Assembly: GCA_015222205.1 (NCBI GenBank)
Contig: JADFUW010000002.1
Location: 1,303-65,302, forward strand
Source: Chloroflexota bacterium
GTDB taxonomy: Bacteria > Chloroflexota > Dehalococcoidia > Dehalococcoidales > UBA5760
Direction of reading: 5' to 3'
Length of the DNA stretch: 64,000 nt
Part shown: positions 6,297 through 60,958 of the stretch, piece after piece
Numbering within the stretch: the first letter of the stretch is position 1
Layout: the number at the start of each line of letters is the position of its first letter
Notes under the pieces: generated by a model
What the model saw: only the letters and a program-made list of their open reading frames with translations
Databases searched by the model: none
What the model was told of the DNA's origin: nothing
Made by a program: the position numbers and the translations under genes

Positions 6297-7733
6297 ATGG
6301 AGCCTGCCAAGTTTTTTGAGAGACGAACCAAGATAGTTTGTACCATCGGTCCGGCGACTGCGTCGGTGGCTATGATTGAACGGCTGATTACGGCTGGTAT
6401 GAATGTTGCCAGGTTTAATTTATCTCATGGTACTGCTGGTGAGCACGCCCGTTATATCCGAATCGTAAGGAGGTTGAGTCGGCGTCTGGGGATACCGGTG
6501 GGGGTATTGATTGATTTGCCGGGGCCCAAATACCGAATTGGAAAATTGAAGGGTAGCCGGGCTATTTTGGAAAAGGGTGCCCCGGTAATACTTACCACAA
6601 GGGCAATAGAGGGTGATGCCAATTTAGTGCCGGTGAGCCTGCCCTATCTGGCGCAGGATGTGAAGGTAGAGGATACGATGCTTCTTGCTGACGGAGTGAT
6701 AGAGCTTAAGGTGCAGGCGATAGAGGGCGATGAGGTAAACTGCCGGGTAAAGGTTGGTGGTTTGCTTACTGAGGGTTGTGGGTTGGTGGTGCCTGGAATG
6801 CGTAGTTCTGTTCCTTTTATTACTGATACCCTGCGGCAGTATATTCATTTTGCTGTTGAGCAGCAACCTGATTACCTGGCGCTCTCATTTGTGGCTGCTG
6901 ATGAGGATATCACCAGTGTTAGAGCCATCCTGCAGGAGGCTGGTGTTGATATACCCATTATTGCCAAGATAGAGCGGCGGCAGGTGGTGGATACCTTTGA
7001 TAAGGTACTCTCGGTGAGTGATGGTGTTATGGTAGCGAGGGGAGACCTCGGTGTAGATATTCCCCTGGAGAAGGTACCGCTGGTACAGAAGGAGATTATC
7101 AAGAAGTGTAACTGGGTGGGTAAGCCGGTGATTACTGCTACTGAGATGCTGGAGTCAATGGTGAAATCAATCCGTCCCACGCGGGCTGAGGCTGCTGATG
7201 TAGCTAATGCTATATTTGACGGGAGTGATGCCATTATGCTTTCATCGGAAACCTCCGTGGGTAAACATCCGGTGCGAGCAGTGACCCTGATGTCCCGTAT
7301 TGCCCGGGAGGTGGAGAGAAAATTGCCCTATCAGCAAATGTTGACGGAAAGGGGCAGGTGGCTTGAGCATAAGACAGATGAGTTAATAAGCTATAATGCC
7401 TGCTACACAGCGTATAACCTGGGGGCGGTAGCCATAGTGGCCTTTACCCAGTCCGGCAGCACGGCGGGTCGGGTATCAAAATACCGCCCTAGAGTACCCA
7501 TCTTAGCCATAACTTCTAGTAATGTTGTATCGGGCCGGTTACTCCTGCGCTGGGGGGTGTATCCCTTCCGGGTAACTGGGTTATCGTCGGTGGATGAGCT
7601 ATTTGATGCGGGGGCCAAGCTTGTTAAAGAACTTGGGTTAGCTAGAGCGGGTGACCTGATAGTAATTACCGGCGGTGTTCCTATCGGCTTAATCGGGTCG
7701 ACCAATCTGCTGAAGGTGGAAGAGATTAAATAG
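6297..7733 (+). CDS. pyk: pyruvate kinase
   Basis: 478 aa. RRTKIVCTIGPA, NVARFNLSHG and MVARGDLGV..ATEMLESM are hallmark pyruvate kinase motifs. SD GGAGGG lies upstream. Confidence 0.96.
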   Translation: MEPAKFFERRTKIVCTIGPATASVAMIERLITAGMNVARFNLSHGTAGEHARYIRIVRRLSRRLGIPVGVLIDLPGPKYRIGKLKGSRAILEKGAPVILTTRAIEGDANLVPVSLPYLAQDVKVEDTMLLADGVIELKVQAIEGDEVNCRVKVGGLLTEGCGLVVPGMRSSVPFITDTLRQYIHFAVEQQPDYLALSFVAADEDITSVRAILQEAGVDIPIIAKIERRQVVDTFDKVLSVSDGVMVARGDLGVDIPLEKVPLVQKEIIKKCNWVGKPVITATEMLESMVKSIRPTRAEAADVANAIFDGSDAIMLSSETSVGKHPVRAVTLMSRIAREVERKLPYQQMLTERGRWLEHKTDELISYNACYTAYNLGAVAIVAFTQSGSTAGRVSKYRPRVPILAITSSNVVSGRLLLRWGVYPFRVTGLSSVDELFDAGAKLVKELGLARAGDLIVITGGVPIGLIGSTNLLKVEEIK

Positions 7734-7770
7734 CGACACTAGAGACTCGGTTTCTAGGCCTGGGTTGAGC

Positions 7771-8535
7771 CTATTCACCGTTTTTAACGACATAGTTTCT
7801 CAGCGTGCCTATCCCCTCTATCTTTATCTCTACGGTATCACCGGGGTACATGGGCCCGATGCCACTGGGGGTGCCGGTGGCGATAACATCACCGGGCAAG
7901 AGTGTCATGATGTGAGATATAAAGCTCACCAGTTCGGGGATGGGGAAGATGAGGTCGCTGGTAGTGCCTCGTTGCTTGAGTTCCCCGTTAAGATAGGCTT
8001 CCAGATTAGCATTACCGGGGTCAAGCTCGGTCTCAACGCAGGGACCAATGACAGAGAAGGTGTCAAAGCCCTTGGCCCGTGTCCACTGACCGTCCTTTTT
8101 CTGAAGGTCACGTGCCGTAACATCATTAAAGCAGGTGTAGCCCAGCACATAGTCCAGTGCCCTTTCTACAGGTACCCGGTATGCCCGGGTCTTTATCACG
8201 ACCCCCAGCTCTGCCTCATAGTCAACCCGCTCTGAAGAGCCGGGATAAACGATGTTATCCTCGGGGCCGATTACTGATGTGGACGGCTTCATAAAAAGCA
8301 GGGGTTCGGGGGGGATGGGTGACTTGAACTCTTTGGCATGGCTGTAGTAGTTAAGGCCCAGCGCCACTATTTTGGAGGGTGTGCACGGGGGGAGGAGTTT
8401 GACCTCGTTAAGATTATAATGACTATTAGAATGCTTGAGCTGACGGTAGGGGGTACCCGTAGCGCCCTGAATGACTTTACCATTTAATATTCCGTATTCG
8501 GCCTTTTTGCCGGTGGTAAAACATATAATTTTCAT
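7771..8535 (-). CDS. fumarylacetoacetate hydrolase (FAH) family protein
   Basis: 254 aa. DYEAELGVVI, GYTCFNDVTARD and PGDVIATGTPSGIG are typical of the FAH / 2-keto-4-pentenoate hydratase family. Confidence 0.88.
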   Translation of the reverse strand: MKIICFTTGKKAEYGILNGKVIQGATGTPYRQLKHSNSHYNLNEVKLLPPCTPSKIVALGLNYYSHAKEFKSPIPPEPLLFMKPSTSVIGPEDNIVYPGSSERVDYEAELGVVIKTRAYRVPVERALDYVLGYTCFNDVTARDLQKKDGQWTRAKGFDTFSVIGPCVETELDPGNANLEAYLNGELKQRGTTSDLIFPIPELVSFISHIMTLLPGDVIATGTPSGIGPMYPGDTVEIKIEGIGTLRNYVVKNGE

Positions 8536-10530: not shown

Positions 10531-11316
10531 TTGAATAGGGTTACTATAGTGAAGCTTGGTGGGGCTACTTTAGGTGGTCATGATACGGCTATTGAGGATA
10601 TGGTCAAGCTTCAGCAGCGAGGCATACCGCTGGTTATAGTCCATGGTGGGGCTAAAGTAGTAACCGAGTGGCTGTCGCGTCAGGGGATTGCTACCAGGTT
10701 TGTCCGTGGTGAGAGGGTGACTGACGAGGCAGCGCTTGAGATGGTAACCGCGGTGCTTGGTGGCTTGGTTAATAAGGGGATTGTGGCGGCTATCAATAAC
10801 TTGGGGGGGCGGGCAGTGGGTATTACCGGTATTGACGGAGCCATGATTCAGGGTAAAATTAGGGATGGAGAGATGGGCTATGTCGCCAGCATAGTTAAAA
10901 TAGATACGGCTCTCCTGGAGGCTTTGTTACGGTCAGGCTACATTCCGGTGGTGGCTCCATTAAGTATGTATTCATTTGAGAGACCAGACGGCGCCCCATT
11001 AGTGCTTAATGTTAACGGTGATACTGTGGCGGGTGAAATTGCGGTGGCTATGGGTGCAGAGAGGCTCATCTTTTTAACTGATGTTGCTGGCATCTGTGAC
11101 CGAGCAGGCAAGCTGCTGCCTTACTTATCGTCCCGTGAGGCTGAAGCGTTAGTAGCTTCAGGCACAGCTTCAGGGGGAATGATTCCTAAGGTTAAAGCTT
11201 GTCTGAGGGCTTTAACTAATGCTTCGGTTACATGCATTATAAATGGGAAACAGCCACACGCATTGCTTAGGGAGGTTGAGGAGGGTGATGTAGGCACAAC
11301 AATACAGCGTAAATAA
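10531..11316 (+). CDS. argB: acetylglutamate kinase
   Basis: 261 aa. IVKLGG...VIVHGGA...NVNGDTVAGEIA is the amino-acid kinase family ArgB pattern. TTG start after AAGGGGG. Confidence 0.93.
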   Translation: MNRVTIVKLGGATLGGHDTAIEDMVKLQQRGIPLVIVHGGAKVVTEWLSRQGIATRFVRGERVTDEAALEMVTAVLGGLVNKGIVAAINNLGGRAVGITGIDGAMIQGKIRDGEMGYVASIVKIDTALLEALLRSGYIPVVAPLSMYSFERPDGAPLVLNVNGDTVAGEIAVAMGAERLIFLTDVAGICDRAGKLLPYLSSREAEALVASGTASGGMIPKVKACLRALTNASVTCIINGKQPHALLREVEEGDVGTTIQRK

Positions 11317-11360
11317 GTGGGGGTGATGGGTTACTAAATAATCTTATGATAGAGGTGAAA

Positions 11361-12548
11361 ATGAGTCACTGGCAGGAGCTTGAGCACAGGTATTTTATGC
11401 CGACCGTGGAGCGTACCCCCGTTACCCTGGTTAGGGGGCAGGGGGTACGGGTGTGGGATGATGCTGGCCGGGAGTACCTGGATTTTGTTGGTGGCTGGGC
11501 GGTTGATAGTCTGGGGCACTGTCATCCGGTGGTAGCTCAGGCGGTGATAGAGCAGGTGCAGACACTTATTCACACCTCAAACCAGTTCTATACTATCCCC
11601 CAGATTCGCCTGGCTGAGCTTTTGGTCAAGAATAGCTGTTTAGACAAGGTCTTTTTCGGTAATAGTGGCACCGAGGCTAACGAGGGAGCGGTAAAACTGG
11701 CTCGTCGCTATGGGAAACGCTATCTGGATGGAGCCTACGAGGTTGTTACCGCTTATGCATCTTTTCATGGTCGCACTCTGGCTATGGTGGCGGCTAGTGG
11801 ACAGGCTAAGTTTCAGGAGCCATATATCCCCCTGCCGGTGGGATTTATCAATGTGGAGTATAATAATGTTGAGGCAATAAAGGCAGCCACCACCAGCCAG
11901 ACCTGTGCCGTGATGTTAGAACCGTTGCAGGGGGAGGGTGGGGTTAATGTGCCTAGCAAGGGTTATTTAGCAGCAGTGCGGGACTGGTGCGAGCAGGCGG
12001 GCATACTGTTTATTCTAGATGAAATTCAGACGGGGTTGGGACGGACAGGAACACTTTTTGCCTATGAACAGTACGGTGTTGAACCTGATATAATGACACT
12101 AGCTAAAGGTTTAGCCAGTGGCTTACCCATTGGGACTCTCTTGGCTAAGGATAGAGCCTCGGTATTTACCCCCGGGGAGCATGGCTCTACCTTTGGTGGT
12201 AATCCGGTGGCTTGTGCGGCTGGTTATGCCACGCTAAAGTTCATTATTGAAAATGACATTGCTGGGAATGCCCGTAGGGTGGGAGAGCATCTGCTTTCTG
12301 GACTGGGGAAATTGAAAGAGAAGTTCAGTTTCATTACTGACGTGCGGGGGCGCGGATTACTAGCGGCTATGGAGTTTAGTAGTGAGATTGCCCAGTCGGT
12401 GGTAACAGCCTGTCTTGATAGGGGCTTATTGGTTAACAAGCTTAAGCCCAATGCCCTACGTTTTATGCCACCCCTGGTTGTTAGTAGCCGGGAGGTTGAT
12501 GAGGCCATAGGTATTTTGGATAAAGCATTATCAAGCGTCAGTAGCTAA
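11361..12548 (+). CDS. argD: acetylornithine aminotransferase
   Basis: Class III aminotransferase motifs (GNSGTEANEGA, LDEIQTGLGRTG, TFGGNP) in an arg operon context. ATG 11361 has SD GAGGTGA. The track start is 11346. Confidence 0.93.
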   Translation: MSHWQELEHRYFMPTVERTPVTLVRGQGVRVWDDAGREYLDFVGGWAVDSLGHCHPVVAQAVIEQVQTLIHTSNQFYTIPQIRLAELLVKNSCLDKVFFGNSGTEANEGAVKLARRYGKRYLDGAYEVVTAYASFHGRTLAMVAASGQAKFQEPYIPLPVGFINVEYNNVEAIKAATTSQTCAVMLEPLQGEGGVNVPSKGYLAAVRDWCEQAGILFILDEIQTGLGRTGTLFAYEQYGVEPDIMTLAKGLASGLPIGTLLAKDRASVFTPGEHGSTFGGNPVACAAGYATLKFIIENDIAGNARRVGEHLLSGLGKLKEKFSFITDVRGRGLLAAMEFSSEIAQSVVTACLDRGLLVNKLKPNALRFMPPLVVSSREVDEAIGILDKALSSVSS

Positions 12549-18931: not shown

Positions 18932-21389
18932 TTGGCACTAAATGTTAAGCCTCTGCGCCGGATTCTTGAGCTTGAGCATAAGAAGGGTTACCCGGACTCA
19001 GCCGTAATTGGGGGTCTGGATAGATTCCTCCATCAGTGGGTAAGTCAAGCTATAGAGTCGATAACTAACCCTAAACTCTTAAGTCACTTTCATAAACTCA
19101 ACCTGGTTAACTCTAACTATGCCTCTTTAACCACAGAGCAGCGTCGGCAGTGGGCTGAGGATATGCTTGGCTTTTTGGGTGAGCTAGAACACCAGGGTGG
19201 AGAGAGCACCACAGCTAAATTGATGTCTCCAGCTAGCCCATCAGTGCCAGTACCAAGGAAGTCGAAAGCCACTCCTAGCCAGTCTGTAAACTTGCCCATT
19301 ACGGCTATCAAAGGTATCAGCCCCAACCTAGCTAATAAGTTTAGTAAGTTGGGGGTGAAGACGATTCGGGACTTGCTCTACTTCTTCCCCCACCGCCACC
19401 TTGACTATAGTCAGAGAAAGTATATCTCCCAGCTTGCTGAGGGCGAGGAGGAAACGATAATTGCCAATGTGTGGCAGGCTCAGGAGGTCAGGCTGGGGGG
19501 TCGGCGCAGTACCGAGGCTATTGTCGGTGACGAAACGGGTAATGTCAGGGTAGTATGGTTTAACAACCCTTATCTGGCTAAAAAATTGACCACTAATACA
19601 AGAGTAGTTGTCAGTGGCCGGGTTGGCTTGTTTAACGGCCGGCATGTATTCCAGTCTCCAGAGTGGGAGTTGGTCGGGGATGAGGACCTGATTCACACCG
19701 GGCGTTTGGTTCCCCTCTATCCTCTTACTCAAGGACTGCGCCCACGCCAGGTAAGAAAACTGATGAAAGGGGTTATTGACCAGTGGGCGTGGCAGGTGAC
19801 AGATTTCTTACCCCCAGAGGTGAAAAAACGGCAGAGCCTTCTGGAGCTATCTCAGGCGATATGCCAGGCTCACTATCCCGATGATGAAGCCCTTAAGACT
19901 CAAGCCAGAATTCGGCTGGCTTTTGATGAGCTGTTTCTTCTCCAGCTGGGTGTGCTCAGCAGGAAGCATGACTGGCAGTATAGTCAGCCGGGTAATCCGT
20001 TTAGTGTCCAGGGGATGCTTATGGATACCTTTCTAGAGTCCCTGCCCTTTGAGCTGACCCCGGCTCAGCAAAAGGTACTCGGGGAGCTACTGGCTGACCT
20101 GCAGAAGTCGCAGCCAATGTCCCGGTTACTACAGGGGGAGGTGGGCAGTGGTAAGACAGTAGTGGCTACGGCGTTACTGCTTATGGCGGTGGCTAATGGT
20201 TATCAGGGGGCCTTTATGGCGCCTACCGAAATTCTGGCAGAGCAGCACTTTACCACTATCTGTCAACTCCTGTCCCGACTAGGGCATAAAGATAGTGGGG
20301 AAGATTGTCTCCATAGTTATTCCGGGTTTCTGTCTCATCCGGTTACGGTGGCGCTACTTATTGGTGATATTAACCTCAAAAGTAAGCAGAAACTAAAGCA
20401 GCACATTTTAGATGGCGATATAGGTGTTATTATTGGAACTCACGCCCTCATTCAGAAAGGGGTAGAATTTCACAAATTGGGGCTGGTGGTGATAGATGAG
20501 CAACACCGGTTTGGTGTTACTCAGCGCTCAGCACTCCGGCAAAAGGGGTTTAATCCTCATGTACTGGTGATGACGGCAACACCTATCCCGCGTACCCTAG
20601 CCCTGACACTATACGGAGACCTTGACCTCTCGGTTATTGACCAGTTGCCGCCGGGGAGACAGGTGGTGAAGACAAAGTGGCTTAAACCAGGGCAGAGAAA
20701 TAGCGGCTATGCCTTTTTGCATCGTCAGGTGGCTCAAGGCCATCAGGCATTTATTATCTGCCCTCTGGTTGAGGAGTCAGAGGTGATTCAGGCCAGGGCA
20801 GCGGTTGCTGAATATGAGCGTTTATCTAGAGAAGTCTTTCCTAACTTGAGGTTAGGCTTGCTCCACGGACGCATGACGGCGGCGGATAAAGATAAGGTAA
20901 TGCGTCGGTTTCGCTCTGGCGAGCTGGATATTCTGGTTTCCACTCCAGTAGTTGAGGTGGGTATAGATGTGCCCAACGCTACGGTAATGATGGTGGAGAG
21001 CGCTGACCGTTTTGGTCTGTCGCAACTACATCAGTTTCGGGGCCGGGTGGGACGGGGCCCGGAGCAAAGCTACTGCATGCTGCTTGCCCAGAACCCATCC
21101 GAGGTGGGGTAGAGAGCGGCTTGACATAATAGAAAAGTTTCACGATGGCTTTCAACTGGCTGAGGAAGACCTGAAGCTGCGGGGTCCGGGTGAATTCTTT
21201 GGCACGAGGCAGAGTGGACTGCCCGACCTCAAGATGGCTAAGCTCTCTGATGTCACCCTGCTGGAACTGGCACGTAGTGAAGCGATAAAGGTCTTTGAGG
21301 TAGACCCCCGTTTAGAAAAGCCGGAGCATAAGCTTCTGGCTAAAGAGCTAGCCTGGGTCTGGACAGCCGAGGGTGGTGAGTGGAGCTAG
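18932..21389 (+). CDS. recG: ATP-dependent DNA helicase RecG, reading frame broken by an apparent 1-nt insertion in a G4 run (21106-21109)
   Basis: Track ORFs 18932-21112 (helicase motifs GEVGSGKT, DEQHRFG, QLHQFRGRVGRG) and 21012-21389 (ERLDIIEKFHDGFQLAEEDLKLRGPGEFFGTRQSG, the RecG C-terminus) are consecutive parts of one RecG. Deleting one G from GTGGGGT restores ...SEVGRERLDII.... Confidence 0.9.
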
Positions 21390-26117: not shown

Positions 26118-26870
26118 TTAAGTAAGTGGTTCAAAGTCGTTCCATCTCTGTTTCCATTTATCGAATCGGGGATGTTCCTTTAAGCTATTAAGTTTTTGCT
26201 TAGCTTCCTCGCGGTCTTTAGATCCTATACGAGGAAGTACATAACGAGAGAAGTAAATTGTTTCTTCTGTTGATTGTGACTCGTGAAGAGGCATTTCGCT
26301 TTTATGTTTTTTTAACAATTCTTCTAGTTCATGACCCACCTTGTAGGCTAAGTTTGTATCACCTAAGTCATGCCTCTCTGACAATGCCATTAAGTAGTTG
26401 TTAAGTGCCATTCCTTTTAATTCCCAATGGGTCTTTTCGTCAATTTCTCTAGCATAATTTACTGCCTTCTCTGCTTCGGTAACCGCATAGTCAATAAGGT
26501 AGGTGGCCGTCTTATCATGTTCATAGAGGCGACCCCACAACGGTGCGACTTTCATGTGTAGGGTGCTAAAGAAGTCGTTCTTACACTCTTCAATAGCACC
26601 GCTAAGTTCAGCCCTGAGATCACGTAATAGCATATTTCGAAGAGCCCAGCCAAGTATAGCTATTAGTACTGCCGTAAGGACAGTCAAAACTGCTATCACA
26701 ATCAAAATCACATCACGTAGAACATTATAGGCATCCTCCCCACTAGTGAGCAGAATTGGATGTTGTGAAAAATACAAATACGCAAAAAAGCCTGCTAATC
26801 CACCAAATATAACTACTAAAAGAATTAGTAAGGGCGGTAGTAATGACAGCCTCCTCGTTCTCATCGTCAT
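26118..26870 (-). CDS. hypothetical membrane protein (two N-terminal TM helices + helical soluble domain)
   Basis: 250-aa ORF, AT-rich, SD AAGGAGG before the ATG. Helices LSLLPPLLILLVVIFGGLAGFFAYLYF and VILIVIAVLTVLTAVLIAILGWAL. No family recognised. Confidence 0.6.
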   Translation of the reverse strand: MTMRTRRLSLLPPLLILLVVIFGGLAGFFAYLYFSQHPILLTSGEDAYNVLRDVILIVIAVLTVLTAVLIAILGWALRNMLLRDLRAELSGAIEECKNDFFSTLHMKVAPLWGRLYEHDKTATYLIDYAVTEAEKAVNYAREIDEKTHWELKGMALNNYLMALSERHDLGDTNLAYKVGHELEELLKKHKSEMPLHESQSTEETIYFSRYVLPRIGSKDREEAKQKLNSLKEHPRFDKWKQRWNDFEPLT

Positions 26871-26894: not shown

Positions 26895-26942
26895 TTATAT
26901 CTCCGGTCTCCTCTTATGCCACTCGGTTGCCTGCTGGTAGGC
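26895..26942 (-). pseudogene. orphan second copy of the gatA 3' end (15 codons + stop)
   Basis: The minus strand encodes [15 protein letters not shown], identical to the gatA C-terminus (27088-27135). 5 of 48 nt differ and all are silent (including TAG vs TAA). Confidence 0.85.
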
Positions 26943-26975
26943 GATTTTCATTTTTCACCTTTTACCAAGTAACTA

Positions 26976-27087: not shown

Positions 27088-28557
27088 CTAAATTTCCGGT
27101 CTCCTCTTGTGCCACTCGGTTGCTTGCTGGTAGGCGTAGGCAATTTTTAAGATAGTTTCCTCAGCAAAGGGCTTGCCGATAATCTGCATGCCTATGGGCA
27201 GCCCGTCGGCAAAGCCGGCCGGGATGGAGATAGCCGGCACTCCGGCGATATTTATCGGCAGGGTGCAGATATCGCTTAAATACATCTGAAGGGGGTCGTC
27301 TACCTTCTCCCCGATTTTGAAGGGGACGGTGGGGGAGGTGGGGGTTATCAGGGCATCAAATTTGCTAAAAGCCTGGTCAAACTCCTGCCGTATTAAGGTG
27401 CGCACCTTTTGGGCTTTTAGGTACCAGGCATCATAGTAGCCGGCGGACAGGGCATAGGTTCCCAGCATAATACGCCTTTTCACCTCAGGTCCAAAGCCAT
27501 ACTGGCGGGTCTTTTCCAGCGCCTCCCACATATTGTCGGTCTCCTGATAGGAGAAGCCATACTTTACCCCGTCGTAGCGAGCCAGGTTGGCTGAAGCCTC
27601 TGATGGGGCGATGATATAGTATGCCGCCAGGGCATAGGGGGTTGATGGTAGTGATACTCCCCACTCTATCTTGGCCCCCAGTTCTTTAAGTTTAGCGATA
27701 GCGGCTCGTATGGCTGTTTCTACTTCTGTCTGCATTCCCTCAACGAAATACTCCTTGGGGACACCGAGGCGAAGGCCATTAAGGTTGCCGGTTAGGCACT
27801 GAGTGTAATCGGGCGTAGGCTCGGGAACCGAGGTAGAATCTCTTGGGTCATAGCCAGCGATGGCGTTTAATACTAGGGCACAATCAGTAACATCCTGGGT
27901 TAGCGGTCCAATCTGGTCAAGGGAGCTGGCAAAGGCGACCAGACCGTATCGGCTCACCCTGCCGTAGGTAGGTTTGAGGCCGGTAACACTGCAGAAGCCA
28001 GCCGGCTGGCGAACACTGCCGCCGGTATCCGAGCCCAGGGCATAGATGGCTTCGCCAGAGGCTACCCCCACGGCTGAACCCCCACTACTTCCGCCAGGCA
28101 CGCGGCTCAAGTCCCAGGGGTTATGGGTGGGGAAGAAGGCGGAGTTCTCGGTAGACGAACCCATAGCAAATTCATCCATGTTTGCCTTACCTATAATTAC
28201 GGGGTGATGCCCGTTTAACCTTTCGACTACAGTGGCGTCATAGGGTGGCACAAAATTTTCCAGCATCTTTGATGAGCAGGTGGTTTTTATCCCTTTGGTG
28301 CACATGTTGTCCTTGATTAGCACCGGGATGCCGGTAAGTGGGTTAGTATTGCCAGTCGCAATAAGCTCGTCAGCCTCTTGAGCTTGCTTTAGTGCTAGCT
28401 CATCAGTAACAGTAACCAGGGCACTAATCTTTGGCTCGATTTCATGTATACGCGCTAGATGGGCTTTGGTTAGTTCAACTGAGGAAAGTTGCTTGGTTTT
28501 AAGTAGCTGATGTGCCTCATGGATTGTCAAATGGTTATGATTAGTTATATTACTCAC
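27088..28557 (-). CDS. gatA: Asp-tRNA(Asn)/Glu-tRNA(Gln) amidotransferase subunit A
   Basis: 489 aa. Amidase signature [20 protein letters not shown]. Located downstream of gatC. Confidence 0.97.
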
Positions 28558-30430: not shown

Positions 30431-30784
30431 TGGTGGAGACGGGGGAGAGTTGAACTCCCCGTCCAGAGGAAGCTACCCAAAATATCCTACAAGCTTAGTC
30501 AGCTCTTTTTCTTACTTAGCTAGCCTCTGCTAACCGAGTTTAGCCAAGCCAGCCAATAAATCTTTCGTCACTCTTTATTGGCATCAGAGCGGCGGCACCT
30601 CAACTTTTCGTCACCCAATCCTAACCCATTGAGGCGAGGTCAGGTTGGATGTGCAACCTATTTAATTAGGCTGCAAGAGCGAATTCAGGTTCGCCAGTTA
30701 TTTCTGCCACTTGTTTTATGAGGGTAGCGGCACCTCAGCTTGCAATTCTGCAGCATACCTCCCCTGTCGAACCCATGCGTCCCC
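30431..30784 (-). ncRNA. ssrA: tmRNA (SsrA)
   Basis: The minus strand reads 5' GGGGACGCATGGGTTCGACAGGGG ... GGACGGGGAGTTCAACTCTCCCCCGTCTCCACCA 3'. It has a tRNA-Ala-like acceptor stem with a G3:U pair, a T-arm and an encoded CCA. The internal tag ORF ends ...GGC GAA CCT GAA TTC GCT CTT GCA GCC TAA, giving (AEIT)GEPEFALAA*. The resume codon is not determined. smpB is adjacent. Confidence 0.95.
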
Positions 30785-30811: not shown

Positions 30812-31276
30812 CTACCTCCTTTTGTATTTCTGTCTCTTTAAGGCTCGTCCTATTTCCCGCTCTGTCTCACGACGGGCTATTGACTCTCGCTTGTCGTATA
30901 ACTTCTTGCCCTTGGCTAGTGCAATCTCAACCTTGGCGATACCGTCTTTAGTATAGAGTTTTAGGGGAACCAAAGCAAAGCCCTTTTCCAGCACTTGACT
31001 GCTAAGATTATCTATCTCCTTGTGGTGCAAGAGAAGCTTCCGAGGTCGGGTTGGTGTGTGGCTCATATAGCTACCCGCTTCATAACGGGCAATGTGAGCG
31101 TTTAGTAACCATAGTTCCCCAGCCTCAGGCTTAACATAAGCATCCCCAAGACTTACTCTACCGGCTCGGATTGACTTTATTTCCGTACCGGTGAGCACCA
31201 TTCCAGCCTCTATACTCTCCTGTATATGATAATTATGATATGCTTTGCGGTTGGTAGCTACCGTCTTTATAACCAC
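30812..31276 (-). CDS. smpB: SsrA-binding protein SmpB
   Basis: 154 aa. NRKAYHNYHI..EAG..L.GTEIKSIR and a basic C-terminal tail fit the SmpB signature. Confidence 0.96.
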   Translation of the reverse strand: MVIKTVATNRKAYHNYHIQESIEAGMVLTGTEIKSIRAGRVSLGDAYVKPEAGELWLLNAHIARYEAGSYMSHTPTRPRKLLLHHKEIDNLSSQVLEKGFALVPLKLYTKDGIAKVEIALAKGKKLYDKRESIARRETEREIGRALKRQKYKRR

Positions 31277-33658: not shown

Positions 33659-34504
33659 TTAGATAGTTGCTTCTTTATGTCGGGCACACCAGCACTGCAG
33701 GTTAACCGCTACTGGTAGGCTGGTGGTATGGGTGGGGAAAACCTCAATATGAACTGCCAGAGCCGTAGCTCGGCCACCGTATCCCATCGGGCCGATGCCC
33801 AGGTTATTGACTCGCTTGAGAATTTCTCTCTCCAGTTCAGCAACCTCAGCCTCCGGGTTGGGCTCACCTACCTTTCGTAATAACGCTCGTTTTGCCAGCA
33901 TAAAAGTCTTTTCTGCAGTGCCGCCAATGCCGACACCAACAATAACCGGGGGGCAGGGATTGCTGCCGGCTCTGTCCACAGTATTAACCACAAAGTCTGT
34001 GACCCCTTGACGGCCTTGCGCCGGGGATAGCATAGCCAGGCGAGCCATGTTCTCAGCGCCACCCCCCTTCGGCAGGGCAATAATTTTAAGCTTGTCGCCA
34101 GGGACAATATCGGTATATATAATAGCCGGTGTGTTGTCCTTGGTGTTAATTCTAGCAGTACAAGGCTGGCTCACCATAGACTTGCGTAGATAGCCCTCGG
34201 TATATCCCTGCCTCACTCCTTCATTTATTGCTGAGCCTAGGTCGCCGCCAACTATGCAGGCATCCTGCCCTAGCTCTAAAAAGACTACGGCGGTTCCTGT
34301 ATCCTGACACAGGGGGATTTTCTCTCTGGCTGAGATGTCGGCGTTCTCTAGTATTCTATCCAGCACCTCACGCCCTATGGACGATTCCTCTGTCTCTCGT
34401 GCCCGCTTGATAGCATTTAGCACATCCTCAGGGAGGTAATGGCAAGCCTCTTGGAAAAGCCGAGATACTGTCCTTGTTATTTCCTTTGCTTCAACCTCTC
34501 TTAT
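33659..34504 (-). CDS. class I (Fe-S) fumarate hydratase / hydro-lyase, alpha (N-terminal domain) subunit
   Basis: CQDTGTAVVF and GGGAENMA motifs are present. Homology-like sequence (IREVEAKEITRTVSRLFQEACHYLPED) continues 27 codons upstream of the track's GTG start (34423), up to an in-frame TAA at 34513-34511. The only start-like codon there is ATA (34504-34502), 9 nt after GGAG. The 5' end is therefore uncertain. Confidence 0.85.
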   Translation of the reverse strand: MREVEAKEITRTVSRLFQEACHYLPEDVLNAIKRARETEESSIGREVLDRILENADISAREKIPLCQDTGTAVVFLELGQDACIVGGDLGSAINEGVRQGYTEGYLRKSMVSQPCTARINTKDNTPAIIYTDIVPGDKLKIIALPKGGGAENMARLAMLSPAQGRQGVTDFVVNTVDRAGSNPCPPVIVGVGIGGTAEKTFMLAKRALLRKVGEPNPEAEVAELEREILKRVNNLGIGPMGYGGRATALAVHIEVFPTHTTSLPVAVNLQCWCARHKEATI

Positions 34505-34568
34505 AGTCGCTTACTCCTTTCCCTACCCGCCGGTAAGTCAACAACTCTAGGCATCAATCATAAGCCAG

Positions 34569-36087: not shown

Positions 36088-37674
36088 TCATGTTGGTATA
36101 ATGCCGTGCTTCTTTTTAGGTCTTGGTTCCATCTTATCTATTACCATCTCCAGTGCTTTTATCAACCTTGGTCTTGTTTCTGCTGGGTCAATTACATCGT
36201 CAACATGGAGGTGTTCGGCGGCCCTATATGGATTGGCGAATATACTTCGGTATTCCTGTATTTTCTCCTGCAGTAGCGCATCAGCATCTTCAGCCTTTTC
36301 CAGTTCTTTTCTGAATATTACCGCCGCCGCTCCCTCTGGCCCCATCACTGCTAGTTCTGTGGTAGGCCAGCAAAATACCGTATCAGCACCTAGATCTTTA
36401 CAGCACATTCCTAGATAAGCACCCCCGTATGCCTTTCTGATAGTGAGGGTGATTTTGGGTACTGTGGCCTCCGAATAGGCGTAGAGCATCTTGGCGCCGT
36501 GCCTGATTATCCCCCCCCACTCCTGGTCGGTGCCGGGTAGATATCCGGGAACATCAACCAGATTGATAATCGGGATATTAAAGGCATCGCAGAATCGGAT
36601 AAATCTTGAGGCCTTATCGCAGGCATCAATATCCAGACATCCTGCCTTTGACATCGGCTGTTGAGCTATTATGCCTACTGACCACCCGTTAAGTCTGGCA
36701 AAGCAGGTGATTATGTTGGTGGCAAATATGGGGAAGAGCTCAAAGTAATTCTTCTTTCCATTCGGTTCCTGGTCAAATACTCGCTCAATTATCTTGTGTA
36801 TATCATACGGTTTGTTGGGACTGGCGGGGACAATATCAAATAGGGTTGGGTCTATACGGTTTGGGTCATCGCCGAGGTCAACCCTTTTCGGTCTCTCCCT
36901 ATTGCTTGATGGCAGGTAGCCCAGCAGCTCCCTTATGCTTTCCAGACATTCAGCCTCGCTATTTTCAGAGCGGCAAGCCACCCCCGCCTTCTTTTGTGCC
37001 GTAATAGCACCGCCAAGCTCCTCGGGGTTAATCTCCTCCCCCATTACGGCCTTGACCACCTGTGGTCCGGTGATAAAGGCATAGCTTATGCCTTTAACCA
37101 TGAATATAAAGTCCATTAGTGCTGGGGAATATACGCCACCTCCAGCGCAGGGACCGAGAATGGCACATATTTGAGGGATTACCCCGGAAAATATCGAGTT
37201 TCTGTAGAAAATTTGACCATAGCCAGCCAGGGCATCAACGCCGTCCTGAATTCTGGCACCCCCGGAATCATTTATGCTGATGATAGGGCAACCTACCTTA
37301 GCGGCGCTATCCATTATGTGGCAAATCTTGGCGGCGTGTATTTCGGATAGACTTCCTCCAACAGTGGTGAAATCTTGAGCGTAGACATATACTTTTCTGC
37401 CATCAATCTTACCGTAGCCAGTAACTACCCCATCGGCGGGCACCTGTATCTTATCCATACCAAGGGCAGTACCTCGGTTGGTGGCGAACATACCCGTTTC
37501 ACAGAAAGTTCCCTTGTCAAGTAATCGGTCAATCCGCTCGCGGGCGGTTAGCTTGCCTCGCTTTTTCTGTTTTGCCACGCCATCCCTGCCCCCCATCGCC
37601 TTAATCTTTTCCTGGCGCTCTTTTAGGTCAGCGAGTAATTTGTCCTTTATTTGTTTATCTTCCCGTGTTGCCAT
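36088..37674 (-). CDS. acyl-CoA carboxyltransferase (methylmalonyl-CoA decarboxylase alpha / propionyl-CoA carboxylase beta family)
   Basis: 528 aa. Two carboxyltransferase domains (DFTTVGGSLSE..., PKITLTIRKAYGGAY). No biotin carrier or other subunits in the window. Confidence 0.9.
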   Translation of the reverse strand: MATREDKQIKDKLLADLKERQEKIKAMGGRDGVAKQKKRGKLTARERIDRLLDKGTFCETGMFATNRGTALGMDKIQVPADGVVTGYGKIDGRKVYVYAQDFTTVGGSLSEIHAAKICHIMDSAAKVGCPIISINDSGGARIQDGVDALAGYGQIFYRNSIFSGVIPQICAILGPCAGGGVYSPALMDFIFMVKGISYAFITGPQVVKAVMGEEINPEELGGAITAQKKAGVACRSENSEAECLESIRELLGYLPSSNRERPKRVDLGDDPNRIDPTLFDIVPASPNKPYDIHKIIERVFDQEPNGKKNYFELFPIFATNIITCFARLNGWSVGIIAQQPMSKAGCLDIDACDKASRFIRFCDAFNIPIINLVDVPGYLPGTDQEWGGIIRHGAKMLYAYSEATVPKITLTIRKAYGGAYLGMCCKDLGADTVFCWPTTELAVMGPEGAAAVIFRKELEKAEDADALLQEKIQEYRSIFANPYRAAEHLHVDDVIDPAETRPRLIKALEMVIDKMEPRPKKKHGIIPT

Positions 37675-38156
37675 ATTAGTCCCTCAGTTCAACTAGTTCG
37701 ATTAGTATTTTTGGTTTCTTCTTATTAATTAAAGTTAAAACAATATTATTATTGCCTAAAGATATATTCCTAAACTTGGCAGGGTCATCCCTGCTAGGTT
37801 GAGCTAAAGCTTAACAACTTTTGCAGCGTTTGTCTATCTCCTGATAGAGTTCCTTGATACCCATATCATTTATGACTTACGCAATGACAACTTGACAGCT
37901 TAAACTGTATTTCTTGTTGTTCTGCCTTTCTCTCAGTTTATTTTACTATATTCCCGCTTCTCTATAAAGGGTGCCTGCTTATTTGAGTTATTGGTAACAT
38001 ATAACTAACCTCTTCAGTCCTCTTTTTCTGTTAACTGCTTTAAGAGCTGAACTGGGAGTCTAGTTGGTGTTAAAGCCTAGAAATCCTAACCCCGCTAGGC
38101 TATAATAAACACTAGTTCAAGTAGCTGGAATGTCGTTCTGAGAACAGGAACGGGTT

Positions 38157-39323
38157 GTGAATATAGATGAACTAAAGACCTTAGTTATTGGCGAAGTGGA
38201 TGCTCACCGTGACCAGCTTAACGAGCTCAGCCTAAGAATTCACTCTAATCCAGAGCTGGCTTTCCAGGAAACTAAGGCGGTAGCCTGGCTAACTCAATAC
38301 CTGGAGGCAAACGGTTTCTCTGTAGAACAAGGAATCTGTGGACTCCCGACTGCTTTCCGGGGAGACTATGGGCATGGAAAACCGGCTATTGCCATTCTGG
38401 CTGAATATGATGCCCTACCCGGGCTGGGGCATGCCTGTGGCCATAATCTTATTGCTACTCTGGCTGTTGGTGCTGGGGTGGCTTCTAGGCTGGCGGTTGG
38501 CCAGCTTGGGGGTAGCATCCTCGTTATCGGCACACCGGCCGAAGAGCTATATGGGGGCAAGATAAAAATGGCTAGCCGAGGAGCCTTTGACAGTGTGGAT
38601 GTAGCTATGATGGTACACCCGGGGACACATGATGTTGCTACTACCCAGGCCCTTGCTTGCCAGACTCTAGAGGTTGAATTCTTCGGTAAGGCAGCTCACG
38701 CTGCTGCCAAGCCGGAGGCAGGCATCAACGCCCTCGAGGCAATGGTTCAATCCTTCGTGGCTATTAATTCACTGCGGCAGCATATCAAGGATAAATCTCG
38801 AATCCACGGTATTATTACTGACGGTGGGCAGGCGGCTAATATAGTCCCCGCCCACAGTGCTGGGATTTTTATTGTGCGGGCTGAGAGTGATGTTTATCTT
38901 GATGAACTAAAGCAAAGGGTCATAAACTGTTTTGTTGGTGCCGCTACAGCTAGTGGGGCTCGCTTAGAATACAGGTGGGAAGATGTCCGTTATGCTAACA
39001 TGCGTAATAATCTAACCCTGGCCCGATTATTCAAGCAGAATATGGAGTTCTTGGGGCGCAAGGTTAAGCTCACTGACCCCGATAGCAGTGTCGGTAGTAC
39101 TGATATGGGTAATGTCAGTCAATTAGTGCCCGGTATTCATCCCACGGTAGCAATAGCTCCAGAGGGTGTAGGTATTCATTCCCCGCAGTTTGCCTCGGCG
39201 GCCGCTTCGGAAGCAGGGAGCCGTGGTCTCTTTGATGCCGCTAAAGCCCTAGCTATGACCGTTGTTGACTTAGTGACCAGCCCCGGGATAATTTTCAGGG
39301 TTAAAGAGGAATTTAGGCAGTAA
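38157..39323 (+). CDS. M20-family amidohydrolase/metallopeptidase (AbgB-like)
   Basis: 388 aa, GTG start. HACGHNLI and GTPAEE motifs and an M20D-type layout. Confidence 0.85.
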   Translation: MNIDELKTLVIGEVDAHRDQLNELSLRIHSNPELAFQETKAVAWLTQYLEANGFSVEQGICGLPTAFRGDYGHGKPAIAILAEYDALPGLGHACGHNLIATLAVGAGVASRLAVGQLGGSILVIGTPAEELYGGKIKMASRGAFDSVDVAMMVHPGTHDVATTQALACQTLEVEFFGKAAHAAAKPEAGINALEAMVQSFVAINSLRQHIKDKSRIHGIITDGGQAANIVPAHSAGIFIVRAESDVYLDELKQRVINCFVGAATASGARLEYRWEDVRYANMRNNLTLARLFKQNMEFLGRKVKLTDPDSSVGSTDMGNVSQLVPGIHPTVAIAPEGVGIHSPQFASAAASEAGSRGLFDAAKALAMTVVDLVTSPGIIFRVKEEFRQ

Positions 39324-39379
39324 CCGCTGCTGGTGATGGGGCTACGGCGGCCATTAGTGCCGAAAAATTTCTCACCTAA
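39317..39379 (+). pseudogene. orphan 3'-terminal fragment of a thioredoxin-disulfide reductase (trxB-like) gene
   Basis: 20 codons + stop encode AVTAAGDGATAAISAEKFLT*. This matches the conserved TrxB C-terminal pattern QA(I/V)TAAG(D/S)G..AA..AEK(F/Y)L. An in-frame TAG lies immediately upstream, no trxB body exists, and the fragment overlaps the last two codons of the M20 gene. Confidence 0.65.
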
Positions 39380-39439
39380 CCGTTTGATAAGCTTTTACTT
39401 GGTTGTCTGGTGAAGTATAATTAGAGAGAAGGGGAAACT

Positions 39440-39916
39440 ATGAAGGTTATTTTCCTAGAGGATGTATCCAATATGGCTAGAGCCGGTGACATAAAAGAGG
39501 TGGCTGATGGCTACGGCAGGAATTTTCTTATCCCTAAAAAGTTGGCTCTTCTGGTGAATTCTCAGGCTATTAGCCTGGTGGAGGCACGGCGTCAAATAAG
39601 GGTCCGACAACAGGCCGAAAGCGAAGCCGAACTACTTGACCTGGCTAAGCAGCTAGACGGGAAGGAGATTACCCTGAAGGCTCGGGTAGGGGCTAAAGAC
39701 CGTCTGTACGGCTCAATTACTAGTGCCGATATTGCAGATGAGCTTAAAGGTAGTGCCGGTCTGGTGGTTGACAAGAGAAAAATAGAGTTGGCTGAGCCTA
39801 TCCGTAAACTCGGTAGCTATGAGGTAGTGGTTAAGCTGGGTAAGGATATACTGCCCCAGATAAGGGTTAGGGTGATAGAGGAGGAGGTTACAGCAACAGA
39901 GGGGGCGTCAGAATAG
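39440..39916 (+). CDS. rplI: 50S ribosomal protein L9
   Basis: 158 aa. MKVIFLEDV...G..G.IKEV.DGY.RNFLIP is the L9 signature. Upstream of dnaB as in many bacteria. Confidence 0.95.
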   Translation: MKVIFLEDVSNMARAGDIKEVADGYGRNFLIPKKLALLVNSQAISLVEARRQIRVRQQAESEAELLDLAKQLDGKEITLKARVGAKDRLYGSITSADIADELKGSAGLVVDKRKIELAEPIRKLGSYEVVVKLGKDILPQIRVRVIEEEVTATEGASE

Positions 39917-39917
39917 A

Positions 39918-41297
39918 GTGAACGGCGAGAAATTACCGCCACATGATATTGATGCTGAGGAAGCCGTAATCGGCTCGCTCCTGATAGAGGGCACAGCCAT
40001 CTACAAGATTACTACCCTTATTGAGCCATCGGATTTTTACGGTGAGAGAAACTCACAGATATATCGGGCATGCCTGGCACTTTACCAACGCAGTGAAGCC
40101 ATAAACCAGATTACCGTAGCCCAAGAGCTTGACCGACAGGATAAGCTGGAGGCATGCGGCGGTGCTGCTTATCTAAGCCACCTGATATCTATAGTGCCTA
40201 CGTCACTCGATATTGAGCACTATGCCCAAATTGTTTACCGTCTATCAGTAATGCGTCGTCTTATTAATGCGGGTAATCAGATTGAGGCTATTGGTTATGA
40301 AGCTGACCCGAGTGTTGAAACTAGCCTGGGTCGGGCGGAGAATATTCTATTTAGGCTGCGTCAGGGGGAAAGTGCTCAGGACCTAGTTCCTATCCGCCAA
40401 GTGCTGGATAAGTATTTTGAAGCCGTTACTCCTACCCTGGCTACTGAAGAAGGCCGTGCTGAGTCAATCCCTTATGTGCTATCCGGTTTTGCTGGCCTAG
40501 ATGAATTTCTTGGTGGATTTCAACACTCCGACCTGACTATTGTTGCTGGTAGGCCCAGCATGGGCAAGACCAGCTTAGCCCTTAACATCGCCCGAAATGC
40601 GGCGGTGGAGCAAGGAGCTTGCGTGGCTCTGTTCAGCATGGAGATGGCGCGAGAGTCACTGGTGTTGCGCCTCTTGTCCAGTGAATCCGGGGTTAATTTG
40701 AGGCAGGTTCGTCTTGGGCTGCATACGGAAGCAGAGGAAAAAAGGATTATGGACGCTACCGGTGTCCTTTCAGAGGCGCCGATTTATATTGACGATACCC
40801 CTCAGCTACGGGTAGTAGAGATGCGAAGCAAGGTCCGGCGACTGCAATATGAGCGTGGTGTCAACCTCATTATTGCTGATTACCTGCAGTTGATGCAGGG
40901 GGATAGTAGAGCCGAAAACAGGGTTCAGGAGGTTAGCTATATCTCTCGTTCCCTTAAAGGAATAGCGCGTGAGCTTAATGTGCCCGTGATAGCTGTATCT
41001 CAGCTCAGCCGCGCGGTGGAGTGGCGGGCTTCACATAAGCCTCAGCTCTCTGACCTGCGTGAAAGTGGCAGTATTGAACAGGATGCCGATGTTGTTCTGT
41101 TTATCTACCGGGATGAAGTACGCTATGCTAACCAAAAAGCCTGGGAGGATGAGCATCTCGGTGAGGCCTATCCACCTCCAGCTGAGATTATAATTGGCAA
41201 GCATCGTAATGGCCCTACCGGAGAAATAAATCTGCGTTTTATCCCAAGACTGGCTAAGTTTGAAAATATTGCTAATGCCGAGCCGAGCCTGCTATGA
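39918..41297 (+). CDS. dnaB: replicative DNA helicase DnaB
   Basis: 459 aa. PPHDIDAEEAVIGSLL, Walker A GRPSMGKTS, IADYLQLM and SQLSRAVE are present. Length is normal, so no intein. Confidence 0.96.
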   Translation: MNGEKLPPHDIDAEEAVIGSLLIEGTAIYKITTLIEPSDFYGERNSQIYRACLALYQRSEAINQITVAQELDRQDKLEACGGAAYLSHLISIVPTSLDIEHYAQIVYRLSVMRRLINAGNQIEAIGYEADPSVETSLGRAENILFRLRQGESAQDLVPIRQVLDKYFEAVTPTLATEEGRAESIPYVLSGFAGLDEFLGGFQHSDLTIVAGRPSMGKTSLALNIARNAAVEQGACVALFSMEMARESLVLRLLSSESGVNLRQVRLGLHTEAEEKRIMDATGVLSEAPIYIDDTPQLRVVEMRSKVRRLQYERGVNLIIADYLQLMQGDSRAENRVQEVSYISRSLKGIARELNVPVIAVSQLSRAVEWRASHKPQLSDLRESGSIEQDADVVLFIYRDEVRYANQKAWEDEHLGEAYPPPAEIIIGKHRNGPTGEINLRFIPRLAKFENIANAEPSLL

Positions 41298-43340: not shown

Positions 43341-43461
43341 GAAGCCATAAGCCAGGCTTGTATACCCAGAGAGTTTTTAGTAAAATGGGTAAACCTACCT
43401 GTGGGAAGAAGCTTTTCGAACAAGATACTTAAGCCTGTTTGTGGAAAGAGAGCTTATAAAC

Positions 43462-43965
43462 ATGGTAAATCAGTCAGTCCTAGTATTAAATCAGAGCTAT
43501 GAGCCACTCAATATATGTCTAGCCCGGCGAGCAGTAGTGCTGGTTTATCAAGGCAAGGCTGAGATGTTAGAAAACGGTGCTGGCTTTATCCAGTCAATCA
43601 GTTGTAGCTTTCCCCTTCCCTCAGTAATACGGCTACACCGTATGGTTAAACGCCCCCGACCTAGGAGAAGGCTGACTCGCCTGGAGGTTTTCAGCCGTGA
43701 CCAATACACCTGCCAGTATTGTGGCCGGGAAAGTCGACAGCTTACATTGGACCATGTTATCCCTCGCTACCGAGGTGGTGAGCAGACCTGGGAAAATGTG
43801 GTTAGTGCTTGTATCTCCTGTAATCGGCGCAAAGCCGGCAGGACGCCTGAAGAGGCCGGGATGAAATTAAGACACCGTCCGTCCCCTCCGCGAGATAACC
43901 TTCTTTTTTATATCCCTCTCCCCCTCAAAACTCAGGTTCAGTGGCAAAAGTATCTCCCTCATTGA
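43462..43965 (+). CDS. HNH endonuclease
   Basis: VLVLNQSYEPL...RRAVVLVYQGKAE at the N-terminus and CQYCG...LTLDHVIPRYRGG..TWENVVSACISCNRRK (HNH with zinc-finger cysteines). The start is ATG 43462 (the track uses GTG 43441). Confidence 0.88.
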   Translation: MVNQSVLVLNQSYEPLNICLARRAVVLVYQGKAEMLENGAGFIQSISCSFPLPSVIRLHRMVKRPRPRRRLTRLEVFSRDQYTCQYCGRESRQLTLDHVIPRYRGGEQTWENVVSACISCNRRKAGRTPEEAGMKLRHRPSPPRDNLLFYIPLPLKTQVQWQKYLPH

Positions 43966-60330: not shown

Positions 60331-60630
60331 GAGCTTACTACTAGGTGCCCTTTCCTCTAATGTTTCCTTGAACTAACTGCTGGGTGGCCTTTCCCCATCT
60401 TGCCGACAAATTGTCTGGCATTCCCCATCACTGGATAGTACATCTAGACACGAAATCCATAGTGGTGATGAGCATAATGATATGTAATGCTAGCTGGTGG
60501 GATTGGGCGGCACATCAAGCTTCTTACTTTTAATAAGATGACATTCAATCTAAAGGTCAAAAAATAGCTAACAAGTAGCTGACCAACGTAATGGTGTGGG
60601 TTATCACCAACTGGTATTTTAGCTTTGAAA

Positions 60631-60704
60631 TCGGGGTGGGCGGATTTGAACCGCCGACCACCTGAACCCCATTCAGGTGCGCTACCTGGCTGCGCTACAC
60701 CCCG
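60631..60704 (-). tRNA. tRNA-Pro (anticodon GGG)
   Basis: Hand-folded cloverleaf. Acceptor CGGGGTG/CACCCCG, D-arm GCGC/GCGC, anticodon arm CCTGA-ATGGGGT-TCAGG (U33, GGG, G37), T-arm GGCGG-TTCAAAT-CCGCC, discriminator A. CCA is not encoded. Confidence 0.95.
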
Positions 60705-60958
60705 ACTGACTCTTAGTACTTTGCAACCACATATTAGCATAATTCATTTTGGTGAGCAAATAAAGCTTATCTGTATAGCTAGGGTAACCAGATTTTCCAC
60801 TTTCTCATTGGATGTGGGGCATTTCTCTTTGGGATTAGGGCTAGTCGCCATCGGTTTGGTTATGGACAGGAACAATACAAATCTGCTAACATTAATATCT
60901 TGGCAAGGGAGATAGAAGATTTTAGTCACTAGTAGAGGAGAGGGGTAGTTATAGCACA

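Follow-up and report, generated by a model that had tools for sequence, protein, structure and literature searches.

Contig JADFUW010000002.1, from a Dehalococcoidia lineage of the Chloroflexota, carries the final 20 codons of trxB, a thioredoxin reductase gene, wedged between the end of an M20-family amidohydrolase gene and the rplI-dnaB genes. We examined 64,000 nucleotides (nt) of this contig, called here the window, and conclude with high confidence that this remnant is a non-functional scar of trxB left by a deletion at a short microhomology. The ancestor of the lineage carried M20, trxB (~305 amino acids, aa), rplI and dnaB in this order on one strand, and a single illegitimate, microhomology-associated deletion removed trxB codons 1 to ~287 and, with them, the final two codons and the stop of M20. 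Comparison with its relatives indicates that the lineage has lost the trxB copy that they keep upstream of rplI-dnaB.

The trxB remnant and its joint with the M20 gene

The remnant occupies the +2 frame relative to the M20 open reading frame (ORF), reads GCA GTA ACC ... CTC ACC TAA and is directly preceded by an in-frame TAG (39314-39316), already pointed out in a sequence-only reading of this DNA and borne out by the translation. We built a profile hidden Markov model (HMM) of TrxB from 34 proteins of relatives, with the window excluded; when the 2407 six-frame fragments of the window were scored with it, the remnant came out on top (E = 5.9e-6, 22.6 bits, profile positions 284-303). When its 20 residues were compared by phmmer with all PDB chains, the 27 matches at E<10 were all thioredoxin reductases and all aligned at the C-terminal residues ~285-335, with weak individual E values (0.25-9). 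At the nucleotide level, the blastn alignment of window 39315-39500 with the orthologous locus of a sister lineage (L010 12041-12228, E = 1e-37) runs unbroken from the trxB 3' end across the intergenic region into the start of rplI. Hand counts on the printed sequences give ~80% nt identity between the remnant and L010, with no insertions or deletions (indels), compared with 78.5% for M20. The remnant is thus orthologous by position to the TrxB of relatives, and it shares with the family (TIGR01292; Escherichia coli TrxB, PDB 1tde/1f6m) the C-terminal pattern (R)QA(I/V)TAAG(D/S/T)G..AA..AE(K/R)(F/Y)L. In the relatives, the orthologous tails read ...AVTAAGDGATAAFYAEKFITQ in L001 and ...AIIAAGDGATAAIQATKFLT in L010, at TrxB C-termini ending ...RQAVTAAGDGATAAFYAEKFITQ and ...RQAIIAAGDGATAAIQATKFLT, respectively; the conserved segment TAAGDG..AA..AEKF(L/I) is present in the remnant, 16 of whose 20 residues are those of the L001 and L010 tails (hand count).

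A 20-aa translation rich in alanine and glycine might resemble TrxB by chance, and the single-sequence values are indeed weak (E = 0.098 with E. coli TrxB, at least 0.25 in PDB); tblastn searches with individual TrxB proteins missed the remnant at E<=1, and a family HMM was needed to recover it. Against chance stand the value of the family profile at the exact C-terminal positions, the restriction of all 27 PDB matches to thioredoxin reductase C-termini, and the nucleotide alignment with the orthologous trxB tail that continues into rplI. Taken together, they leave chance a vanishingly small probability and uphold the assignment made in the sequence-only reading: the remnant is a genuine trxB 3' terminus.

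It is also all that the window retains of the gene. Neither the six-frame HMM search nor tblastn found any other piece of trxB in the window, which agrees with the earlier remark that a trxB body is missing there, and no thioredoxin gene (trx) was found either. No sequence in the window matches the flavin adenine dinucleotide (FAD)-binding GxGxxG, the redox-active CATC or the GGGNxA/HRR parts of TrxB that bind reduced nicotinamide adenine dinucleotide phosphate (NADPH), all of which the L001 and L010 orthologues have. Compared with TrxB, ~287 of 307 codons are gone, including the GGGPAG FAD motif, the CATC centre and the NADPH-binding domain, and the enzyme cannot be encoded: where a functional TrxB (TIGR01292) is an ORF of ~300 aa with a start codon and a ribosome-binding site (RBS), the remnant has 20 codons, no start codon and no RBS.

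The M20 gene ends ...GAA TTT AGG CAG TAA, its stop codon (39321-39323) lying within the trxB fragment, where the same bases belong, in another frame, to the GTA-ACC codons of trxB. Its product accordingly ends in EFRQ, 2 aa short of the 390-aa orthologues, which end in EFRQEK, EFRQGK and similar sequences (E/G-K). Among the parent sequences, M20 orthologues have ...TTT CGR CAR G(G/A)A AAA TGA (F R Q G/E K, stop) and trxB has ...CGG CAG GCA GTA ACC... (R Q A V T); the window joint reads TTT AGG CAG TAA CC. Its bases AGGCA/GGCAG can be aligned either to M20 codons R387-Q388 or to trxB (...C AG GCA G...), a microhomology of 3-5 nt that is shared because M20 ends ...F-R-Q-(G/E)-K and TrxB contains ...P/A-R-Q-A-V-T.... 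Microhomologies of 3-5 nt are typical of illegitimate recombination. The two blastn high-scoring segment pairs (HSPs) to L010 share window 39315-39318: the one over M20 ends at 39318, and the one over trxB starts at 39315. The sequence-only reading was therefore right that the fragment overlaps the M20 end; the junction that it called sharp lies inside the microhomology, and trxB DNA may begin at 39315 rather than at 39317. The register used at the joint is shifted by 4 nt (an in-register R-Q crossover would have produced an in-frame fusion of M20 to the TrxB tail), and as a consequence M20 keeps R387-Q388, drops two residues and stops at the out-of-frame TAA.

The identical joint is found in L005 and L006, from two metagenomes of the Joint Genome Institute (JGI), and in L093, from an ENA assembly, with 96-97% nt identity to the window. 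Its presence in the assemblies of three other samples means that it is not an assembly artefact and that it is older than the divergence of these strains. The junction 25-mer had no exact match in a metagenome contig collection, which evidently lacks the L005 and L006 contigs that carry this 25-mer. Among the four sequences the remnant differs by 1.5-7.7% (1-5 differences in 65 nt), compared with 2.5-3.4% in M20, and some of the changes would replace residues in the former trxB frame (in L093, V to I and A to S), a drift that, for so few sites, is consistent with neutral evolution. Since the remnant is as close to L010 as M20 is and carries no indels relative to it, the loss is young relative to the split from L010.

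The remnant could alternatively have been kept for a function, whether it serves the rplI-dnaB promoter as an operator or upstream element or provides a necessary spacer between M20 and rplI. It lies 15 nt upstream of a conserved rplI promoter-like site and has remained free of indels after ~3% divergence among the four sequences. Yet rplI is not preceded by any sequence of this kind in two sets of relatives (the group of L031, L034, L039 and L045, and the loci L056 to L074), the remnant has accumulated substitutions at least as often as the flanking genes have, and scans of the region for terminators and Rfam families detected no terminator-like hairpin, other structure or motif in it. We therefore consider such a function very unlikely.

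Gene order in relatives and the course of the deletion

Protein database matches to M20 comprise one identical entry (a Chloroflexi metagenome-assembled genome, MAG), three at 97-100% and then many at <=80% from uncultured Dehalococcoidia. We surveyed 80 loci from GTDB species representatives, the best M20 match to the window being 80%. In virtually all of these ~80 Dehalococcoidia loci, M20 is found 5' of the trxB-rplI block, and the order trxB-rplI-dnaB occurs in every close relative examined, which supports the proposal of the sequence-only reading that trxB once preceded rplI-dnaB. In L001 and L002, nusA on the minus strand is followed by M20, two DUF2229 genes, BcrAD_BadFG, TrxB (305 aa), RplI, DnaB, a DnaD-like, a DnaC-like and an HNH protein; L013 has the same M20-DUF2229x2-BcrAD-trxB-rplI arrangement as L001. 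L007 and L008 have M20, two DUF2229 genes, BcrAD, PlsX, Trx, TrxB, RplI and DnaB, and L011 has M20, BcrAD, PlsX, Trx, TrxB, RplI and DnaB. The sister lineages L010 and L025 have the simple order M20-trxB-rplI-dnaB, which in L010 is preceded on the minus strand by SmpB, an FAD-binding flavoprotein, malic enzyme, SucDC, epimerase, a B12-binding protein, methylmalonyl-CoA mutase (MCM; CoA, coenzyme A) and MeaB. The L010 TrxB has 307 aa and its start overlaps the M20 stop; intact trxB genes in the closest relatives encode 305-307 aa.

With 392.2 and 377.7 bits, respectively, the TrxB of L001 and that of L010 both exceed the TIGR01292 equivalog cutoff of 343.45 bits, and the translated L001 protein has the GGGPAG, CATC and HRR motifs, CATC being present in L010 too. 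From the cutoff and the CATC centre it follows that the missing gene is a true TrxB. In a distance-based neighbour-joining tree of concatenated M20 and DnaB, which carries no support values, the window groups with L010 and L025, and this group is sister to L001 and L013. An intact trxB, seen in sister and outgroup lineages alike, is most probably the ancestral state. Upstream synteny also links the window with L010 (SmpB 89% and malic enzyme 87% identical, and the meaB remnant described below); given this synteny and the tree, the immediate ancestor most likely had M20-trxB-rplI, and the deletion would have spanned ~0.88 kb.

Comparison of window 37600-39500 with the loci of relatives by blastn yielded three collinear blocks with L010. 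The first, window 37807-37892, corresponds to L010 9023-9108 at the 3' end of meaB (81% identity). The second, window 38066-39318, corresponds to L010 9906-11156 and contains the M20 promoter region and M20. The third is the alignment that runs from the last 20 trxB codons into rplI. Between the second and the third, 884 bp of L010, containing trxB codons 1-287, have no counterpart in the window, as seen both by blastn and in the alignment with L010 and L025. With L001 as the reference, the gap widens to 3971 bp, and the deletion might have reached ~4 kb if the DUF2229 and BcrAD genes still stood between M20 and trxB, as in L001. To be viable, a deletion would have had to reach no further left than the dispensable M20 C-terminus and to stop short of the rplI promoter on its right; the 63 nt left between these two constrained elements would since have been drifting neutrally.

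On the other side of M20, the 482-bp spacer holds a 3' remnant of meaB, which encodes a methylmalonyl-CoA mutase-associated GTPase, and the kept meaB-M20 intergenic region, and it is in part a second deletion scar itself. The meaB remnant reads QVVIA, an in-frame stop, VINDMGIKELYQEIDKRCKSC and the terminal stop, where the L010 MeaB (288 bits to TIGR00750) ends in ...VITTQAINDIGIEELYQEIDKRRKSC; it matches L010 MeaB aa 222-248 (tblastn E = 1.3e-6, 67% identity), the first ~220 codons and the start codon being deleted in the window. Its placement relies on local blastn and tblastn and on translations, as a global MAFFT alignment of the spacer with L010 misplaces it. A separate deletion would have removed these 5' two-thirds of meaB. 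The MCM, B12-binding, epimerase and SucCD genes that come after meaB in L010 are absent from the window, which has a carboxyltransferase gene (36088-37674, -) there instead. The L025 meaB (7343-8006, -) matches in three separate HSPs, suggesting frameshifts.

With 3'-terminal remnants on both its sides, meaB on the minus strand and trxB on the plus strand, M20 has the look of a cassette, and the sequence-only reading had proposed that a segment with M20 and the AT-rich spacer of ~480 bp replaced the 5' part of trxB upstream of rplI. In addition, M20 is slightly closer to L001 (80%) than to L010 (78%), while DnaB and RplI are closer to L010. However, this 2% difference in M20 is within noise, M20 lies directly upstream of trxB in L010 and L025 and upstream of the trxB-rplI block in almost the whole survey, and the intergenic DNA 5' of M20, promoter included, has its homologue in L010. 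M20 and its upstream DNA being collinear with relatives and the M20-trxB adjacency ancestral, two plain deletions account for everything without imported DNA, and the replacement is highly improbable.

The same reading had alternatively taken the fragment as the original gene end displaced by an insertion. Integrative elements frequently insert at the 3' ends of genes and leave remnants of this kind behind, as the ssrA-targeted islands of Dehalococcoides exemplify, and an element integrated in the trxB 3' end could have provided the gene with a new end and displaced the original one to the side of rplI. The attL/attR duplications of gene 3' ends that such elements produce likewise leave an orphan 3' terminus beside unrelated DNA, and the window contains another duplicated gene terminus, that of an amidase gene (26901-26954, -). 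The trxB case differs in that there is no second copy on an intact gene, and no integrase or island, in the 39 kb upstream that were inspected, where no trxB body exists. What adjoins the remnant is M20, its conserved neighbour, in an arrangement that is collinear with relatives and free of inserted DNA. Next upstream come housekeeping genes (SmpB, FAD-binding flavoprotein, fumarase, malic enzyme and carboxyltransferase), three of which, those for SmpB, the flavoprotein and malic enzyme, show synteny with L010. The insertion proposal thus finds neither an intact trxB partner nor disrupted flanks, and we regard an att-type origin as extremely improbable.

Several points nevertheless weigh against a simple microhomology deletion followed by neutral drift. 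Arg387 of M20 is encoded by AGG in the window and by CGN in relatives, which would place the crossover to the left of 39315 or else reflect a later synonymous change. Both the crossover base and the extent of the deletion (0.88 kb, or as much as ~4 kb) would have to be deduced from relatives at 78-80% identity, and the neutral drift rests on 1-5 substitutions in 65 nt, a number with little statistical power. The remnant may also retain a residual cis-regulatory role, for example within the region upstream of the rplI promoter, for which we found nothing in support.

A microhomology deletion of trxB remains the reading we favour, and scars of this type are already known: this is ordinary reductive gene loss. 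As in other gene remnants produced by microhomology deletion in reductive bacterial genomes, the flanks are collinear, the gene interior is missing, a few bases are shared at the joint, the remnant lacks a start codon and an RBS and apparently drifts neutrally, and the neighbouring gene has acquired a new stop. The only particularity of the present case is that the joint lies in a microhomology coding for R-Q in both M20 and trxB and used in a shifted register.

Features around the joint and elsewhere in the window

The features of the locus are collected in Table 1. Within the rplI upstream region, L001, L010, L025 and L015 all conserve the block GCTTTTACT...GGTGAAGTATAAT. Relatives share the gene order 3' of dnaB, where a DnaD-domain, a DnaC/IstB-like and an HNH protein are encoded. 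The HNH protein (174 aa; 43441-43965, +), whose position is conserved in relatives, gives a partial match to IscB/Cas9d models in their HNH region, with scores far under the cutoffs.

Table 1. Features of the M20-rplI locus in the window, in order of position
Feature	Coordinates	Strand	Basis and remarks
meaB (methylmalonyl-CoA mutase-associated GTPase) 3' remnant, 27 codons, one in-frame stop	37814..37894	-	tblastn, blastn, translations
M20 promoter-like site, TAGAAA-17-TATAAT	38078..38106	+	kept meaB-M20 intergenic region, homologous to L010
M20-family amidohydrolase gene, 388 aa, intact	38157..39323	+	ORF; NCBIfam TIGR01891, 220 bits (cutoff 153.75)
Deletion joint, AGGCAG	39315..39320	+	blastn HSP overlap; three-way alignment with L010 and L025; L001 sequences
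trxB remnant, last 20 codons (AVTAAGDGATAAISAEKFLT) and stop TAA	39317..39379	+	translation, phmmer, profile HMM, blastn
rplI promoter-like site, TTTACT-16-TATAAT	39394..39421	+	conserved in relatives between trxB stop and rplI; left in place by the deletion
rplI (ribosomal protein L9)	39440..39916	+	TIGR00158, 137.7 bits
dnaB (replicative helicase)	39918..41297	+	TIGR00665, 515 bits; synteny

Other parts of the window show irregularities of their own. The amidase gene (27088-28557, -) has the second copy of its 3' end ~135 nt downstream and in another frame, where it adjoins an ORF of low GC content (0.40; 26118-26870, -) with no Pfam match; unlike the trxB case, this could be an att-type terminus duplication. 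The recG gene appears frameshifted, its first part (18932-21112, +) stopping near a G-run at ~21100-21110 and the rest (21114-21386, +) continuing in the +1 frame. The 91 C-terminal aa of RecG encoded in this frame are 80% identical to the RecG of L011 and L023 (E = 1e-38), and the break may be either a real frameshift or an assembly error of the MAG. Upstream of the fumarase alpha gene (33659-34423, -), homology to the L025 orthologue extends over 34424-34519 (-), ~32 codons beyond the first ATG/GTG/TTG of the ORF, so that either the start codon is non-canonical or the N-terminus is damaged, as it seems. A transfer-messenger RNA gene (30431-30784, -), with the tag peptide GEPEFALAA, adjoins smpB (30812-31276, -), and a tRNA-Pro(GGG) gene is located at 60630-60705 (-).

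Recurrent loss of trxB between M20 and rplI

In the 80 surveyed loci, the M20-rplI interval holds from zero to seven genes, and trxB is reduced in more than one way. In L015 (11065-11178, +) it has become a 33-codon in-frame mini-ORF, MGEEVVIIGGGPAGLTAGDGATAAIYAEKFITE (HMM E = 8.9e-7), in which an internal deletion joins the N-terminal GGGPAGLTAG to the C-terminal TAAGDG within a microhomology (...LTAG/TAAG...). L058, a more distant Dehalococcoidia MAG, has a 5'-truncated trxB pseudogene (11225-11842, +; profile positions 101-303) with an in-frame stop and degenerate NADPH-binding and CxxC motifs. In the group of L031, L034, L039 and L045, trx is directly followed by rplI; a candidate decayed trxB remnant in the L031 group (NNDYG.V...) was unsupported by the HMM scan and dropped. 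In a distant clade (L056 to L074), M20 stands directly before rplI and the HMM scan detected no remnant. L071 has a 3' remnant of BcrAD_BadFG (aa 286-315; 11213-11302, +) between M20 and an intact trxB. This remnant and the breaks in the L025 meaB are further signs of repeated gene erosion around M20 in the group.

These loci indicate that trxB decayed independently several times at this position, the scar in the window being one instance. A stronger version, which we consider rather unlikely, would count at least four or five independent erosions of trxB (in the window lineage, L015, L058, the group of L031, L034, L039 and L045, and the clade of L056 to L074) and hold that, if they lack a second thioredoxin reductase, several free-living anaerobic lineages gave up the NADPH-thioredoxin reductase system or exchanged it for an unrelated reductase. 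Judging by titles and abstracts, the literature on Dehalococcoidia and thioredoxin reductase includes no paper on trxB loss that we could find.

For annotation, 39317-39379 is to be labelled as a trxB remnant and not as a gene, the M20 gene ends at 39323, and the 482-bp spacer contains a meaB remnant. In itself the scar matters little, beyond showing that the lineage lost trxB and, on the other side of M20, meaB; it is, however, a clean example, at the level of single bases, of a microhomology deletion that re-terminates a neighbouring gene. Its only wider point is the recurrent loss of trxB, which matters only if no paralogue compensates. If this were true, the M20-rplI interval would offer a natural series of stages in the loss of the trxB system.

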